DNA from: a virus | DNA length: 26,336 nt | Virus genome (UHGV): UHGV-0273073 | Direction: 5' to 3' (one strand) | Shown: one piece after another, positions 1,572-21,348 of the stretch | Numbering within the stretch: the first letter of the stretch is position 1 | How the letters are laid out: every line of letters begins with the position of its first letter | The notes under the pieces: generated by a model | Database searches by the model: none | What the model was told of the DNA's origin: nothing | Seen by the model: the letters and a program-made list of their open reading frames with translations, nothing else | Made by a program: the position numbers and the translations under genes

Positions 1572-1933
1572 GGTAATATTAAATCGGAACATTTACATCG
1601 CGGAATGTAAAATTTAAATAAAAAGGACTCTTCCATGAGCCAAAATTCCTGAAATCTTAAGGGTAAGATAAAAGGTCTTAATCAGAATGACACGTTTTAT
1701 TAATAAATAAAGCTATTCTTTCATTGCTGTGTTTTTCTTTACAAAAGTAATCCTTGCTATGGGTGGTTAATCATGCGTTAATGGTGTTCTGGTTTGTTAC
1801 AAATTTATCTGAAGCAGTCATTGTTATAATTTTATTATTTGTACCTCTTGAGATTTCCTTGTTGGTTTTTCTCTCTGATATTTTTTTTCGGACCATTCTG
1901 CCCAAGGGCTAATTTCTTCAAAAGGTAATAATT

Positions 1934-2146
1934 ATGTCTAACAAAATGACTGGTTTAGTGAAATGGTTTAACCCTGAAAAAGGTTTTGGTTTCATCACGC
2001 CGAAAGATGGCAGCAAAGATGTGTTTGTCCATTTCTCAGCAATTCAGAGCAACGATTTCAAAACATTAACTGAGAATCAGGAAGTTGAATTTGGTATTGA
2101 GAACGGACCTAAAGGTCCTGCCGCTGTTCATGTTGTGGCGCTTTGA
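1934..2146 (+). CDS. CspA-family cold-shock protein (CspI/CspB-like prophage paralog)
   Basis: 70 aa, [14 protein letters not shown] and [11 protein letters not shown] motifs; preceded by a long AT-rich leader (1572..1933). Confidence 0.95.
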
Positions 2147-2345
2147 GGTAGACAATATTACAAACCATATTCACTTTAGATGCCCGTGTTGTCATGGTTC
2201 CCAGTATAGAACATCATCTTTTGATGTTTCTGACATGAATCCTTTCGGGGCAAAATGTATCTTTTGTAAATCAATGATGATTACATTTGATAATATTTCA
2301 CAATACTTAAATGCCAGCCGTCTGTCGTTGGATTTAAAAAAGTGA
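2130..2345 (+). CDS. Possible small zinc-ribbon protein (CPCC…C..C), start uncertain
   Basis: ORF track 2085..2345; internal Met at 2130; Cys pattern FRCPCCHG…AKCIFCK; immediately followed by an intrinsic terminator. Confidence 0.3.
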
Positions 2346-3846: not shown

Positions 3847-4015
3847 GAGGTTGCCCCGTATTCAGTGTCGCTGATTTGTATTGTCTGAAGTTGTTTTTAC
3901 GTTAAGTTGATGCAGATCAATTAATACGATACCTGCGTCATAATTGATTATTTGACGTGGTTTGATGGCCTCCACGCACGTTGTGATATGTAGATGATAA
4001 TCATTATCACTTTAC

Positions 4016-4223
4016 GGGTCCTTTCCGGTGATCCGACAGGTTACGGGGCGGCGACCTCGCGGGTTTTCGCTATTTATGAAAATTTTCCGGTTTAAGGCGT
4101 TTCCGTTCTTCTTCGTCATAACTTAATGTTTTTATTTAAAATACCCTCTGAAAAGAAAGGAAACGACAGGTGCTGAAAGCGAGCTTTTTGGCCTCTGTCG
4201 TTTCCTTTCTCTGTTTTTGTCCG
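4016..4223 (+). promoter_or_regulatory. cos: Prophage cos site (cosQ-cosN-cosB); cosN 12-nt cohesive-end sequence GGGCGGCGACCT at 4046..4057
   Basis: Sequence matches the lambda genome termini as I recall them (…GGTGATCCGACAGGTTACG | GGGCGGCGACCTCGCGGGTTTTCGCTATTTATGAAAATTTTCCGG…); lies immediately upstream of Nu1. Confidence 0.9.
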
Positions 4224-4780: not shown

Positions 4781-8461
<3,681 letters not shown>

Positions 8462-10190: not shown

Positions 10191-10466
10191 ATGTCTGTAT
10201 ATACAACTGCAGAATTACTGGCATCGACCCAGCATCACTTTAAGTTCGATCCGCTGTTTCTGCGCCTGTTTTTCCGTGAAACCTATCCTTTCACCACGGA
10301 AAAAGTCTATCTCTCACAAATTCCGGGACTGGTAAACATGGCGCTGTACGTTTCGCCGATTGTTTCCGGTGAGGTTATCCGATCCCGTGGCGGCTCCACC
10401 TCTGAATTTACGCCGGGTTATGTCAAACCCAAGCACTTAGCATGGCTTTCTGAGGCTTTCGTGTAG
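10191..10466 (+). pseudogene. E: Major capsid protein E, 5' fragment: codons 1-82 (10191..10436) fused to 9 island-encoded codons then stop
   Basis: MSVYTTAELLASTQHHFKFDPLFLRLFFRETYPFTTEKVYLSQIPGLVNMALYVSPIVSGEVIRSRGGSTSEFTPGYVKPKH is lambda gpE N-terminus; homology ends exactly after His82, followed by LAWLSEAFV*. Confidence 0.92.
10426..10435. repeat. Left copy of 10-bp direct repeat AACCCAAGCA (putative attL core)
   Basis: Identical 10-mer at 20558..20567; both copies sit at the breakpoints of E homology. Confidence 0.8.
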
Positions 10467-11835: not shown

Positions 11836-12066
11836 ATGAAAAAAATGGCAATTGTTGATAAAAAGGGTCTGGAGTACATTCCTAACATTGACCGAATGAT
11901 CCGTGAGAAAGAATGTCGGGAGCTAACCACTCTTGCGAACAGCACACGCTGGAAGCTGGAGAAGGAAGGAAAATTTCCTAAGCGGATCAAGATTGGTTCC
12001 ACTGCTGTTGCATATCGTCTTTCAGAAGTGCAGGCATGGATTCGAGGTGAGTGGGAAACAACTTAA
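11836..12066 (+). CDS. AlpA-family HTH regulator / excisionase-like protein
   Basis: 76 aa; core RELTTLANSTRWKLEKEGKFPKRIKIGSTAVAYRLSEVQAWI fits the AlpA/Xis pattern; directly downstream of int as in P4-like elements and PICIs. Confidence 0.75.
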   Translation: MKKMAIVDKKGLEYIPNIDRMIREKECRELTTLANSTRWKLEKEGKFPKRIKIGSTAVAYRLSEVQAWIRGEWETT

Positions 12067-16607: not shown

Positions 16608-16620
16608 AAAATGGCAATGG

Positions 16621-16850
16621 TTATCTACCTTGTCTACCTGACTGAAAGAAAATACTTTTATTTCAATGTATTAATGCAGGTAGATAACTATTTTTCACTG
16701 TCTACCTGTTATCTACCTTATCTACCCATTTTTGTAGACAGGTAAGGAGACGGGTAGAGATGAGGTAGACAGCTATTTGGGGCTGTCTACCTCCCTGAAA
16801 CCCGCGCCATTACTGGCCTGATAACTAATCAGGTAGACAAGGTAGACAAG
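16621..16850. repeat. Iteron-type replication origin: at least 12 copies of GTCTACC / GGTAGAC in both orientations plus an AT-rich spacer
   Basis: Copies at about 16623, 16632, 16678, 16701, 16711, 16720, 16734, 16753, 16764, 16785, 16831, 16841; AT-rich 16641..16676. Confidence 0.8.
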
Positions 16851-16896
16851 GTGGTGGTGCACAAAAAACTTTTTAAACGAGGGGGTAAAAATAAAA

Positions 16897-17154
16897 ATGC
16901 ACACATCAGGAAAACTGAACAAACATATAAAGCCACATTACCGCGCCCTTGATATGGCTGAACACTGGCTAAGGGTGGCGATTAAGGCAATAGACCGCAA
17001 CGCCGGGGAAGGATACGCGAAAGCACATCCCGAACTGATAAGCGCATTCATGACAACGGCGGCTGCAAACTTTGCCACGCTGACCGAACGGGAGATTGCC
17101 GAAGCGGAGGAAGTGACAACCATCAATATTAAGTCCGGAGAGCAGGCAGCATGA
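16897..17154 (+). CDS. Hypothetical 85-aa protein
   Basis: Stop overlaps the ssb start. Confidence 0.5.
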   Translation: MHTSGKLNKHIKPHYRALDMAEHWLRVAIKAIDRNAGEGYAKAHPELISAFMTTAAANFATLTEREIAEAEEVTTINIKSGEQAA

Positions 17155-17600
17155 CGGCGCAAATAGCAGCTTACGGGCGGCTGGTGGACGCCCCGCAGAC
17201 AAAACAGACCAGCAAGGGCACCCCCATGACGCTGGCGCGTATGGCGGTATCACTGCCCTGCAGCCAGTCGGATGACGGTCAGGCGACGATGTGGTTATCT
17301 GTTCTGGCGTTTGGCAGACAAGCCGACGCGCTGGCAAAGCATCACAAAGGCGAACTCCTGAGCGTGGCGGGTAACATGCAGGTGAGTCAGTGGACTGGAC
17401 AGAACGGTGAAACGCGGCAGGGCTGGCAGGTTATCGCAGACAGCGTAATCAGTGCGCGAACGGTGCGACCGGGCGGCAAAAAAGGCCAACAGGGGCAGGC
17501 TACTGACGCACTGAACAGAGCAAAACAACAGGCAGATCAGCAAGGAAGCCATCCACCAGTGGGAGATAATGAGCAATGGGGAGATGATATTCCGTTTTAA
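17151..17600 (+). CDS. ssb: Single-stranded DNA-binding protein
   Basis: 149 aa; OB-fold core and acidic C-terminal tail ending DDIPF, as in E. coli SSB. Confidence 0.9.
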   Translation: MTAQIAAYGRLVDAPQTKQTSKGTPMTLARMAVSLPCSQSDDGQATMWLSVLAFGRQADALAKHHKGELLSVAGNMQVSQWTGQNGETRQGWQVIADSVISARTVRPGGKKGQQGQATDALNRAKQQADQQGSHPPVGDNEQWGDDIPF

Positions 17601-17618
17601 ATATTGCCAATAAAAAAG

Positions 17619-17643
17619 GCCGGAAAAAAATAAATTTTCCGGC
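17619..17643 (+). other. Hairpin (9-bp stem GCCGGAAAA / TTTTCCGGC) between ssb and the capsid-homolog gene
   Basis: Perfect inverted repeat with 7-nt loop AAATAAA; no downstream T-run. Confidence 0.4.
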
Positions 17644-17817
17644 ATGCTACATAAATCCAGACCAAAGGGAGTGAAGATATTAACACTAATTATCCGCGCT
17701 GAAGTTGTCATCCCAAAACTTTATACAACATTGCACTCGGTTGCATGTATTCGCATGACAAATATCGGTGATAGCATATATCCACAATTATTTTTAATGA
17801 ATGCAAAGAGGATGCGT

Positions 17818-18858
17818 ATGGTTGATTTATATTCGCCTACCCAGCTTGTACAGGTGGTTAATGCTGTAGATGTACAAAAACAACTAAATGCGTTGTTTAC
17901 CAGTTTGTTTTTTACTCGCTCGGTAATGTTTGAATCGCGCGATATTATTCTTGATACAATCGACGATCCAAATATCCCAATTGCAGCGTTTTGTTCTCCT
18001 ATGGTGGGTAGTAAAGTTTCACGTGACGAAGGGTACGAATCAAAAACAATTCGTCCAGGCTATATGAAGCCGAAAAGCAGCATTGATCCAAATAAGTTAG
18101 CTGTGCGCCCTGCTGGTGTATCACCTGAGCAATACAATGCTTTTGGAGCGCGTAATATTAAAGTTAAACAGGCGATTGTAAATCAGGCTAAAGCTATTCG
18201 TGCACGTATTGAATGGCTTGCCGTTCAGGCAATCACAACGGGGAAAAATATCATTGAGGGCGATGGTATTGAACGTTATGAGCTGGACTGGAATATTAAA
18301 CCACAAAATATCATCACTCAGTCTGGCGGTGCTGAGTGGTCAGGTAAGGATAAAGAAACTTTTGATCCAAATGATGATATTGAGAGCTACGCAGAATTTA
18401 GTGAGGGCGTCACTAATATCATCATTATGGGCGGTAATGTATGGAAGAAATACCGTTCATTCAGAGCGATAAAAGAGGCTCTGGATACCCGTCGTGGTTC
18501 TAATTCCGAACTGGAAACGGCCCTTAAAGACCTTGGTGATTCGGTGAGTTTTAAAGGGTATATGGGCGATGTTGCGATTGTTGTATACAGCGGGCGTTAT
18601 ACCGACGAGGACGGAACTGAAAAACATTTCCTTGATCCTGATTTGATGGTGCTTGGCAATACGGCTCTTCAGGGGATTGTCGCCTATGGCGGTATTCAGG
18701 ATCCGGAGCTAATCCGAATGGGGCTGACTAAAGCCGAACTTGCACCGAAAAACTATATTGTGCCTGGTGATCCGGCTATTGAATATGTGCAGACACATTC
18801 AGCACCACAGCCAATACCGGCCCGCATCAATCGTTTTGTTACCGTTCGCATTGGCTAA
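17818..18858 (+). CDS. Island-encoded major capsid protein homolog (divergent gpE-like)
   Basis: 346 aa from ATG 17818 (AGAGG 6 nt upstream), inside track ORF 17644..18858. Blocks ITQSGGAEWSGKDKETFDPNDDIESYA and DTRRGSNSELETALKDLGDSVSFKGYMGDVAIVVYSG align with ITQSGGTEWSKRDKSTYDPTDDIEAYA and DTRRGSHSELETAVKDLGKAVSYKGMYGDVAIVVYSG of the resident E (20569..21348). Confidence 0.9.
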   Translation: MVDLYSPTQLVQVVNAVDVQKQLNALFTSLFFTRSVMFESRDIILDTIDDPNIPIAAFCSPMVGSKVSRDEGYESKTIRPGYMKPKSSIDPNKLAVRPAGVSPEQYNAFGARNIKVKQAIVNQAKAIRARIEWLAVQAITTGKNIIEGDGIERYELDWNIKPQNIITQSGGAEWSGKDKETFDPNDDIESYAEFSEGVTNIIIMGGNVWKKYRSFRAIKEALDTRRGSNSELETALKDLGDSVSFKGYMGDVAIVVYSGRYTDEDGTEKHFLDPDLMVLGNTALQGIVAYGGIQDPELIRMGLTKAELAPKNYIVPGDPAIEYVQTHSAPQPIPARINRFVTVRIG

Positions 18859-18867
18859 GGGGGAGCA

Positions 18868-19209
18868 ATGGCTACTCATTACACTGAACTCATGGCTGGC
18901 ACTGAAGCACTGGTGACTACGCTGGGGATATTTTCAGCTAATAAAGGGGTAATTCCTGCATTTACGCCACTGATGCAGGAAGATGCAACAGGTGCACTGG
19001 TGGTATGGGATGGTTCGAGCGTAGGTAAAGCGGTTTATGTTTCCGCTGTACAAATCGACACCGCGAAAAAAACACAGGCTCAGGTCTATAAGACAGGTGT
19101 CTTAAATGTTGATGCTCTGAACTGGCCTGAGTCTGTAAAAGAACTGTCAGTAAAGATTGCAGCGTTTGTTGGCTCAGGTATTTCTGTTCAGCCGCTGGCT
19201 CGTGTGTAA
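18868..19209 (+). CDS. Island-encoded head decoration protein homolog (divergent gpD-like)
   Basis: 113 aa; TPLMQEDATGALVVWDGSS…YKTGVLNVDALNWPES…AAFVGSGISV aligns with resident [20 protein letters not shown]…[16 protein letters not shown]…[11 protein letters not shown]. Confidence 0.8.
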   Translation: MATHYTELMAGTEALVTTLGIFSANKGVIPAFTPLMQEDATGALVVWDGSSVGKAVYVSAVQIDTAKKTQAQVYKTGVLNVDALNWPESVKELSVKIAAFVGSGISVQPLARV

Positions 19210-19220
19210 AGGGGGATACA

Positions 19221-19604
19221 ATGCAAAATGATTACAATGACCTTAAGCCAATTGCCGAAATGATGTACCCGAATCCAGCTGTAGAGGAATTAAAAGCTAT
19301 CGCTGACAAAATGTGTTTAAGCGAGCGCCTTGTTGATATGAATCAGGTGATGGAAATTACAACCCTGAGTCGGCGTACACTGCTAAACCTTGAGGCTAGT
19401 GGAGAGTTCCCGGAGCGTGTGCAGGTTACGGAAGGGCGTAAGGCCTGGTATTTAAGTGAAGTGATCGACTGGATAAATAATATTCCTCGCGCTTCTGAAT
19501 ATTGCCGCGTACCTGTCCCAAAAAAGCCAGATGCGGCGCTATGCCTCAAGATTGAGCGTGTACGCCGCAATGCACGGGATGGTCGCTATAAGCTGATTGG
19601 TTGA
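19221..19604 (+). CDS. HTH protein (AlpA/excisionase-like fold with N-terminal extension) adjacent to the cos-like site
   Basis: 127 aa; MNQVMEITTLSRRTLLNLEASGEFPERVQVTEGRKAWYLSEVIDWI. Confidence 0.6.
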   Translation: MQNDYNDLKPIAEMMYPNPAVEELKAIADKMCLSERLVDMNQVMEITTLSRRTLLNLEASGEFPERVQVTEGRKAWYLSEVIDWINNIPRASEYCRVPVPKKPDAALCLKIERVRRNARDGRYKLIG

Positions 19605-19629: not shown

Positions 19630-19838
19630 CGGGTCCTTTCCGGCGATCTGACAGGCTACGGGGCGTCAGGCGCGCGGATTTTCGCTATTTATGAAAATTT
19701 TCCGGTTTAAGGCGTTTCCGTTCTTCTTCGTCGTAACTTAATGTTTTTATTTAAAATACCCCCTGAAAAGAAAGGAAACGACAGGTGCTGAAAGCGAGCT
19801 TTTTGGCCTCTGTCGTTTCCTTTCTCGTTTTTTGTTCA
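19630..19838 (+). promoter_or_regulatory. Island cos-like packaging site: cosQ/cosB nearly identical to the prophage cos (4016..4223), divergent cosN-equivalent 12-mer GGGCGTCAGGCG at 19661..19672
   Basis: By-eye alignment: about 150 bp of the cosB arm differ by only a few substitutions; the cosN 12-mer differs at 5 of 12 positions; no terminase genes in the island. Confidence 0.85.
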
Positions 19839-20557: not shown

Positions 20558-20567
20558 AACCCAAGCA
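20558..20567. repeat. Right copy of 10-bp direct repeat AACCCAAGCA (putative attR core)
   Basis: Identical to 10426..10435; E homology resumes 1 nt after it. Confidence 0.8.
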
Positions 20568-20568
20568 T

Positions 20569-21348
20569 GAGGTGAATCCGCAGATGACCCTGCGTCGCCT
20601 GCCGGATGAAGATCCGCAGAACCTGGCTGACCCGGCTTACCGTCGTCGCCGTATTATTCGGCAGAATATGCTGGATGAAAATCTGGCGATTGCCCAGGTC
20701 GAAGAGATGCAGGCAGTTTCTGCCGTGCTTAAGGGCAAATACACCATGACCGGTGAAGCCTTCGATCCGGTTGAGGTGGATATGGGCCGCAGTGCGGCGA
20801 ATAACATCACGCAGTCCGGCGGCACAGAGTGGAGCAAGCGTGACAAGTCCACGTATGACCCGACCGACGATATCGAAGCCTACGCGCTGAACGCCAGCGG
20901 TGTGGTGAATATCATCGTGTTTGATCCGAAAGGCTGGGCGCTGTTCCGTTCCTTCAAGGCCGTCAAGGAGAAGCTGGATACCCGTCGCGGCTCTCATTCC
21001 GAGCTGGAGACAGCGGTAAAAGACCTGGGCAAAGCGGTGTCTTATAAGGGAATGTATGGCGATGTGGCCATCGTCGTGTATTCCGGACAGTACGTGGAAA
21101 ACGGCGTCAAAAAGAACTTCCTGCCGGACAACACGATGGTGCTGGGGAACACTCAGGCACGCGGTCTGCGCACCTATGGTTGCATTCAGGATGCGGACGC
21201 ACAGCGCGAAGGCATTAACGCCTCTGCCCGTTACCCGAAAAACTGGGTGACCACCGGCGACCCGGCGCGTGAGTTCACCATGATTCAGTCAGCACCGCTG
21301 ATGCTGCTGGCTGACCCTGATGAGTTCGTGTCCGTTCAACTGGCGTAA
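20569..21348 (+). pseudogene. E: Major capsid protein E, 3' portion (codons 83-341), separated from its 5' part by the island
   Basis: Frame reads TAA-P-K-H-EVNPQMTLRRLPDEDPQNL… through the normal C-terminus …DPDEFVSVQLA; 82 + 259 residues = 341 as in lambda gpE; an in-frame TAA (20557..20559) lies just upstream. Confidence 0.92.

Follow-up and report, generated by a model that had tools for sequence, protein, structure and literature searches.

The window analyzed here, a stretch of 26,336 nucleotides from the virus genome UHGV-0273073, is the late region of a lambdoid prophage, in which the terminase, portal, protease, and D genes come after cosN. Gene E, which encodes the major capsid protein of this prophage, is split by an insert of about 10.1 kb, a satellite element co-oriented with E and flanked by a 10-bp identity block (Table 1). 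The satellite genes are all located on the plus strand, in the order of integrase, AlpA, Icd-like gene, primase, iteron-type replication origin (ori), ssb, E′, D′, and a second AlpA-family gene (alpA2). The element is a member of the published 11capE type of helper-embedded PICI, whose type strain is Escherichia coli NRG857c (Tommasini, Mageeney and Williams, 2023; PMC10111431): it is inserted into a lambdoid E gene in the same orientation, the 10-bp block is present, and its content includes int, alpA, primase, ori, and a capsid gene of its own. The ssb–E′ junction is 99.1% identical to that of NRG857c and is found in 366 of 5,426 complete E. coli genomes, where some copies reside in prophage capsid or portal genes and others at chromosomal sites.

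In near-identical genomes, the ssb product is annotated as single-stranded DNA-binding protein, and the E′ ATG at 17818 is the start assigned by PGAP. The E′ protein is 42% identical to lambda E, and a comparison with phage records gave none above 60% identity, phage capsids reaching at most 42%. The alpA2 product matches an AlpA-family structure (PDB 8c3t, E = 2e-9), and Rpp structures gave no match to it at E ≤ 1. The E′-D′-alpA2 order is the same in E. coli, Kluyvera, Cedecea, Kosakonia, and Superficieibacter loci, in which alpA2 always follows E′-D′. The AlpA antiterminator of Pseudomonas aeruginosa folds like 21Q, its C-terminal HTH lying at about residues 128–142 (PMC9371919); a corresponding role of AlpA as a Q-like antiterminator in the present element was rejected, the P. 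aeruginosa protein being judged different from the AlpA of about 70 residues (PF05930) in PICIs.

In addition to the genes, the satellite has an ori directly after the primase gene and a cos-like region after alpA2. In the latter, cosQ and the cosB-side sequence are nearly unchanged from the prophage cos, and the 12-nt cosN is GGGCGTCAGGCG in the satellite and GGGCGGCGACCT in the prophage, all of the differences falling in the right half. Another structured element of the window, between the prophage lysis region and cos, is a full-length match to the Rfam cspA thermoregulator (1788–2173, plus strand; 110 bits, E = 9e-28), inside which a cold-shock-like ORF of 70 codons is found at 1934–2146. 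The hairpin that is the subject of this study was considered as part of the satellite ori or of a cos site, and both assignments were discarded because the iterons with their AT-rich core and the cos-like region are situated elsewhere (Table 1).

Table 1. Positions of genes and sequence elements in the window; promoter elements, RNA ends, and regulator sites are predictions.
Feature	Position	Strand	Remarks
Prophage cosN	4046–4057		
Prophage capsid gene E, N-terminal fragment	10191–10466		
10-bp identity block flanking the satellite	10426–10435 and 20558–20567		AACCCAAGCA
Satellite AlpA gene	11836–12066	+	
Satellite replication origin	16620–16860		Iterons GGTAGACA / TGTCTACC / TATCTACC around AT-rich core
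12-bp perfect hairpin inside satellite ori	16762–16793		
ssb	17151–17600	+	Last gene of satellite replication module; Pfam SSB, E = 5e-15
ssb stop codon	17598–17600	+	
T-tract of minus-strand terminator	17609–17618	−	Reads C TTTTTT A TT right after the stem
Predicted small RNA, about 60 nt	17610–17671	−	Ends predicted, ±3 nt
Hairpin	17619–17643		
Putative extended −10 of small RNA, TGnTAnnnT	17685→17677	−	TGTTAATAT; predicted start about 17669–17672
Alternative sigma-70-like promoter	17689–17716	−	TTGGGA, 16 nt, GATAAT; consensus scan; window's own subfamily only
Conserved motif	17721–17729		TTTATACAA; family form CTTTATACA at 17719–17727, minus strand TGTATAAAG
Phased direct repeats, 10-bp period	17731–17756	+	TTGCAC 17731–36, TTGCAT 17741–46, TCGCAT 17751–56
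Putative extended −10 of capsid operon	17769–17777	+	TGATAGCAT; predicted start near 17784
E′ ribosome-binding site	17806–17812	+	AAGAGGA
Satellite major capsid gene E′	17818–18858	+	Pfam Phage_cap_E, E = 1e-41
Head-decoration gene D′	18868–19209	+	Pfam HDPD
alpA2	19221–19604	+	Pfam Phage_AlpA (PF05930)
Satellite cos-like region	19630–19832		94% identical to prophage cos region 4015–4218
Prophage capsid gene E, C-terminal fragment	about 20572–21348		

The hairpin between ssb and E′ has the structure GCCGGAAAA-AAATAAA-TTTTCCGGC, so that the perfect 9-bp stem described in the first-pass annotation is confirmed, here with a 7-nt loop. It lies 19 nt past the ssb stop codon and 174 nt ahead of the E′ ATG. 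Its calculated folding energy is −13.2 kcal/mol for the plus strand (z = −2.9; a value equaled by 1 of 200 shuffled sequences) and −13.5 kcal/mol for the minus strand. The window has just two perfect hairpins whose stem is 9 bp or longer and whose loop is 3–10 nt, this one and the one in the ori, and dinucleotide shuffles of the window give 0.8 ± 1.1 of them; the hairpin by itself is therefore only mildly unusual. What takes it beyond chance is conservation: each homologous locus analyzed has a hairpin in this place even though the stem sequence turns over, as described below.

The sequences flanking the stem give the hairpin a polarity opposite to the one assumed in the first-pass annotation, in which the minus-strand T-run after the stem is not mentioned. 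A consensus scan made a single terminator call at the site, on the minus strand (17643→17619; 9 pairs with 5 GC, a loop of 7, and the tail CTTTTTTATT). The minus-strand tail CUUUUUUAUU has six consecutive T beginning within one base of the stem and 8 T in 10 bases. Together with the GC-rich stem in the range of 5–14 bp, the short loop, and compensatory changes among relatives, this U-run gives the minus-strand hairpin the constitution of a Rho-independent terminator. On the plus strand, A6 precedes the stem and AUGCUACA follows it; the tail AUGCUACAU has 2 U in 8, the U-run that should directly follow the stem is missing, and the scan made no plus-strand terminator call at the hairpin. From this flanking sequence, rightward termination is not expected by the usual criteria, and the absence of a U-tract from the coding strand also means that the hairpin is not bidirectional, unlike its symmetric homologues in the loci L121 and L124.

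The same polarity is found in the relatives. Through the capsid protein, 142 related loci were gathered from E. coli, Kluyvera, Cedecea, Kosakonia, Superficieibacter, and metagenome contigs, and these gave 68 distinct upstream sequences. Simple terminator scans mostly miss the hairpins of the relatives because of their rules on loop length and greedy stem extension; the hairpins were scored uniformly by the number of T in the first 8 nt after the stem on each strand. The minus-strand tail is richer in T in 64 of the 67 distinct homologues, with a mean of 5.9 T on the minus strand versus 1.9 on the plus strand. Within the E. coli type, the hairpin is retained with small changes and the plus-strand flank after the stem is invariant. 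In distant relatives, whose capsids are 80–88% identical, the stems are wholly different (unrelated stems across the families include GCCGGAAAA, GCGGGYC, GCAGCC, CGGGCC, and GACGGG), and 5–8 A are still present ahead of the stem on the plus strand, corresponding to a T-run after the stem on the minus strand. RNAalifold analysis of 11 divergent relatives recovered the terminator with compensatory exchanges between AU and GC at two pairs, and with a U·G pair, valid on the minus strand only, in six of the 11 sequences. Furthermore, distant relatives have a gene other than ssb upstream of the hairpin, which nonetheless remains associated with the capsid module; the hairpin-E′-D′-alpA2 block moves as a unit among relatives with differing upstream genes.

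A more elaborate arrangement is seen in the L126 type, in which two hairpins lie between ssb and the capsid gene (1744–1768 and 1789–1816 of L126). The first, directly after ssb, is a canonical plus-strand terminator (GCCGGAGAAATCCGGCTTTTAT), while the second (A8-GGCCGGAATATTCCGACC; AAAAAAAAGGCCGGAATATTCCGACC) is the homologue of the hairpin of the window, with a T8 tail and a U·G pair valid only on the minus strand. Back-to-back hairpins of this kind would be expected at the meeting point of two convergent transcription units. The plus-strand terminator of the L126 type is missing from the window type, either through loss or because it was never there. Nucleotide exchanges that leave a G·U pair on one strand and an A·C mismatch on the other give a mixed answer on the transcribed strand: the L126 type, L121, L123, and six terminator pairs point to the minus strand, and the L003 type (about nine distinct sequences) and L004 point to the plus strand, where an A→G exchange in the plus-strand 5′ arm keeps a G·U pair on the plus-strand RNA and leaves an A·C mismatch on the minus-strand RNA.

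In the first-pass annotation, the hairpin was taken as a boundary between early and late transcription, and possibly as a site at which helper late regulation such as antitermination is exploited. In such a model, the hairpin would end or attenuate rightward transcription from ssb and be overridden by helper Q or another antiterminator. Its position, directly behind the final replication gene and ahead of the capsid module, is right for this role, and since the element is embedded in the helper late operon in the same direction, it should be traversed by Q-modified polymerase (PMC10111431). The two A→G variants mentioned above, which keep pairing in the plus-strand RNA only, are also in agreement with it. 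Nevertheless, rightward termination at this hairpin is improbable when the invariant or T-poor plus-strand flank and the missing terminator call are considered, and the capsid gene appears to have conserved promoter elements of its own (see below). The true plus-strand terminator of the L126 type means that an early/late termination point is present in some relatives, at a different hairpin, and it is the second, minus-oriented hairpin to which that of the window is homologous. The module boundary itself stands, with a block that moves together and an apparent promoter of its own for the capsid genes, while a function of the hairpin as a rightward terminator or attenuator is not supported.

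The suggestion that helper antitermination is exploited at this site has also found no footing. No sequence similar to boxA (CGCTCTTA) was found within 17500–17900, and no plus-strand terminator is present between the predicted capsid start site and E′, whereas an N- or Q-type antitermination site would have boxA/boxB-like nut elements or a promoter-proximal terminator ahead of the regulated genes on the same strand. In the absence of a U-tract and a boxA, antitermination at the hairpin is neither needed nor indicated. Given also the minus-strand T-tails of the homologues, read-through from ssb into the region is the expected default, which is the outcome that the first-pass annotation had itself named as speaking against its proposal. 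A proposal that helper late (Q-modified) transcription enters the embedded satellite has already been published for the 11capE type (Tommasini et al., 2023; PMC10111431), and this idea is independent of the hairpin.

What would be terminated on the minus strand is suggested by a conserved promoter motif. About 45 nt upstream of the hairpin on this strand lies the element TGTTAATAT. In a minus-strand alignment of 11 divergent sequences with a mean identity of 66%, the invariant positions T42, G43, T45, A46, and T50 spell TGnTAnnnT, the consensus of an extended −10 element. All 68 distinct sequences have it in the more general form TGnYAnnnT (TGnCAnnnT in the L126 type), between −120 and −148 relative to the capsid ATG, and the distance from it to the hairpin is 31–58 nt. 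The putative promoter consists of the extended −10 alone, with no convincing −35, and was not among the sites given by the consensus scan. The scan proposed instead a sigma-70-like promoter slightly upstream, whose transcript would be about 73 nt long with its end at the same terminator; the −35 of this promoter is not conserved in the L002-type relatives. An ORF on the minus strand (17711–17295) was rejected as a small protein gene, for its start codon is not conserved (ATG, GTG, ATA, or GTA) and the frame runs through the terminator.

Stem-loops at the 3′ ends of transcripts are a well-established block to 3′ exonucleases. A stable hairpin 19 nt past a stop codon could accordingly serve as a non-terminating stem-loop or processing barrier of the plus strand that stabilizes ssb mRNA after Rho-dependent termination or trimming, and the G·U-compatible variants of the plus strand would suit such a function. 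This explanation is nonetheless unlikely, because it accounts neither for the A-run conserved ahead of otherwise unrelated stems, which is a T-run on the minus strand, nor for the conserved extended −10 on the minus strand, nor for the association of the hairpin with the capsid module where the upstream gene is not ssb.

The RNA predicted between the minus-strand promoter and the terminator would be about 60 nt in length; in its predicted fold, some 29 nt at the 5′ end (ACUCCCUUUGGUCUGGAUUUAUGUAGCAUG) are unstructured, and the terminator hairpin and a U-tail come after them. The 5′ part contains a C-rich CUCC core, complementary to a GGAG motif of the plus strand. The region for the RNA body (17644–17671) is the best-conserved stretch of the junction: 3 of its 28 columns are variable among 52 distinct E. 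coli-type sequences, compared with 56 of 61 at the 3′ end of ssb and 16 of 35 across 17686–17720. Judged by its sequence, the unit has the attributes of a cis-antisense RNA gene, namely, a promoter and a terminator of its own, a product within 50–150 nt, and a location opposite a sense transcript.

In the distant family, the predicted RNA begins with a hairpin that exposes a CCUCC loop (folding z of −3 to −4), and the stems of this hairpin covary (CUGUCGC/GCGACAG, CUGUUAC/GUAACAG, and UGUUAUUU/AAAUAACA). A comparison of the minimum free energies of the CCUCC and GGAGG forms favors neither strand, L121 alone being clearly minus. A covariance model built from the distant family aligns in full length to 17610–17727 on the minus strand of the window, exactly at the predicted unit. 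The match is weak (17.7 bits, E about 0.1–0.4) and owes most of its score to the promoter part; between the RNA bodies of the E. coli type and the distant type, no structural alignment is obtained. The same model gave a second weak match at 5228–5340 of L007 (plus strand, 21.6 bits, E about 0.02–0.07), downstream of the Cedecea capsid module. A search with Rfam 15 at E ≤ 1, C4 and isrK included, returned no match in the junction region of the window or of nine related loci. A frame of seven codons after GGAGG was discarded as a small protein gene, being confined to the L005 type.

For the targets of the predicted RNA, the cis duplex with rightward read-through RNA has a calculated energy of −52.6 kcal/mol. 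When all translation starts and both strands of the window were scanned for targets in trans, the best duplex was −27.9 kcal/mol, within the tail of the background, and no covariation was found between the predicted RNA and the ribosome-binding sites of E′ and D′ to which it is complementary. Since these scans gave the RNA no target and the RNA body differs between families, the hairpin might be a real minus-strand terminator without a discrete gene, an insulator of the replication module against antisense transcription, spurious or divergent, that arises in the capsid promoter region; the evidence for minus-strand orientation applies to it equally. There is only a small chance that this is the whole explanation, for the RNA body would then hardly be the most conserved intergenic part within E. 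coli, and there would be no reason for the covarying stems around the conserved CCUCC loop of the distant family or for the limited range of promoter-to-terminator distance. That the hairpin is a chance or relic palindrome, or a protein-binding site at the DNA level with no role in transcription, is very improbable, for although the hairpin count is only about one above that of the shuffles, a hairpin with stem turnover and compensatory changes is kept at the same position in every relative, and the iteron ori and the cos-like region are located elsewhere.

Thus, the hairpin is probably an intrinsic terminator at which a short RNA of the minus strand, antisense to the 3′ UTR of ssb, comes to its end. 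Rightward transcription would be left unhindered by the hairpin, and the RNA would be the sole strong complement of read-through RNA in the window. The basis of this reading in the sequence is the orientation of the T-tract, the retention of the hairpin despite stem turnover, and the conservation of the promoter motif and of the RNA body; from these we infer that the minus-strand RNA is produced.

The region beyond the putative RNA gene was described in the first-pass annotation as an AT-rich leader of about 170 bp. It is AT-rich indeed (17644–17805, 162 nt, 35.8% G+C), and it is not a leader: besides the minus-strand extended −10, it holds phased TTGCAY repeats and a plus-strand extended −10, from which the predicted 5′ UTR of E′ is only about 34 nt. 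The stretch of 170 bp rather appears to be a bidirectional regulatory region. A search for a phage origin of this region gave no nucleotide match in 50,697 phage records. The motif CTTTATACA is nearly invariant across families, and of its nine columns one varies in the E. coli type. All families have two or three copies of ATTGCAY spaced 10–11 bp apart upstream of the capsid gene (4 of 27 columns variable in the E. coli type), and in the window they are centered near −50, −40, and −30 as candidate regulator sites for the capsid promoter. The AlpA-family gene that ends the E′ operon encodes a candidate binder of these repeats. The sequence TGnTAnnAT is found 44–55 nt ahead of the capsid ATG in all families, and the order of phased repeats and then an extended −10 is kept across genera. 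In the L002 type, TG is lost and the hexamer is improved from TAGCAT to TAGAAT. From the conservation of the −10, and from the loss of TG in the L002 type being offset by a better hexamer as in a promoter, the capsid operon E′-D′-alpA2 most likely has its own regulated promoter. The same interval contains a stop-free frame of 58 codons, from an ATG at 17644 directly after the hairpin and in frame into the capsid ATG. Such a frame is unexpected at 36% G+C; it looks like chance because an indel of 1 nt breaks it in the L002 type, and it was rejected as a gene.

If the hairpin terminates a small antisense RNA, the region would work as follows. Leftward polymerase would start at TGTTAATAT and stop at the hairpin, producing an RNA of about 60 nt (roughly 17671→17610) from a gene which is divergent from the capsid promoter and whose sense counterpart is the 3′ UTR of ssb or any read-through RNA made rightward. 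By analogy, this RNA would act in cis by pairing with the read-through RNA, possibly leading to cleavage by RNase III as with lambda OOP. The capsid operon may thereby be uncoupled from early read-through out of the replication module or from read-through driven by the helper, and E′-D′-alpA2 would then be expressed from its own promoter TGATAGCAT, flanked by the phased TTGCAY repeats.

The cassette may have a wider distribution. Tentatively, and with rather less confidence than in the terminator itself, it is proposed that enterobacterial PICIs with their own capsid gene carry a conserved unannotated cassette, in which an antisense RNA with an anti-Shine-Dalgarno-like CUCC/CCUCC element is divergent from an activator-dependent capsid promoter with phased TTGCAY sites, and that, until the helper enters its late phase, the RNA keeps the capsid module silenced or uncoupled, or else that it acts on helper transcripts. 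If true, no other small RNA would have been shown before to control the morphogenesis module of a PICI.

The intrinsic terminator itself is ordinary, while the literature and databases searched appear to contain no description of the putative small-RNA gene or of the capsid-promoter architecture. The literature search turned up neither a reported promoter, terminator, or RNA in front of a PICI capsid gene nor a description of the timing of capsid or packaging expression in Gram-negative PICIs, for which only autoactivation by AlpA has been reported. Should the antisense reading be true, the satellite capsid module would be no simple extension of the early operon; it would be autonomous, with a promoter of its own, and a small antisense RNA would guard it. 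In the helper-embedded state, Q-modified helper transcription would collide with it. Should it be wrong, the hairpin would be an ordinary stem-loop at a module junction. NRG857c 11capE and EcCICFT073-like islands are existing model systems for these questions.

Among known systems, 11capE of NRG857c agrees with the element of the window in its integration site in E, its 10-bp identity block, and its gene order. Its published description deals with zones, att sites, and passive late transcription, and mentions no promoter, terminator, or RNA upstream of the satellite capsid gene (PMC10111431). With the Rho-independent terminators of E. coli, the hairpin shares the GC-rich stem, the T-run, and a structure that is kept while the sequence turns over, and it differs from them in pointing against every annotated gene of the element.

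Small structured RNAs of satellites and phages with exposed loops complementary to an RBS-like sequence are represented by P4 CI, P1/P7 C4, and IsrK, which the predicted RNA resembles through the CCUCC loop of the distant family. Rfam C4 and isrK RNAs have been reported in the Bro zone of some PICIs (PMC10111431). These RNAs are processed from sense transcripts and are located in the Bro zone upstream of the replication genes, whereas the RNA predicted here would be a primary antisense transcript adjoining the capsid gene.

The lambdoid PR′/6S RNA/tR′ system with Q, the analogue on which the early/late boundary idea draws, is similar in that a promoter followed by a short terminated transcript is placed beside late structural genes. 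In the present case, however, the terminated transcript would point away from the structural genes, no genes lie beyond the terminator, and there is no terminator between the capsid promoter and E′.

Lambda OOP is a 77-nt antisense RNA that ends at an intrinsic terminator inside the rightward early operon. The predicted RNA has neither sequence similarity to OOP nor an Rfam match, and it would overlap only the 3′ UTR of ssb and not a coding sequence. In design, it would be like OOP: a short leftward transcript with its own promoter inside an array of rightward genes, ending at an intrinsic terminator just past the 3′ end of the upstream gene and fully complementary to the rightward transcripts.
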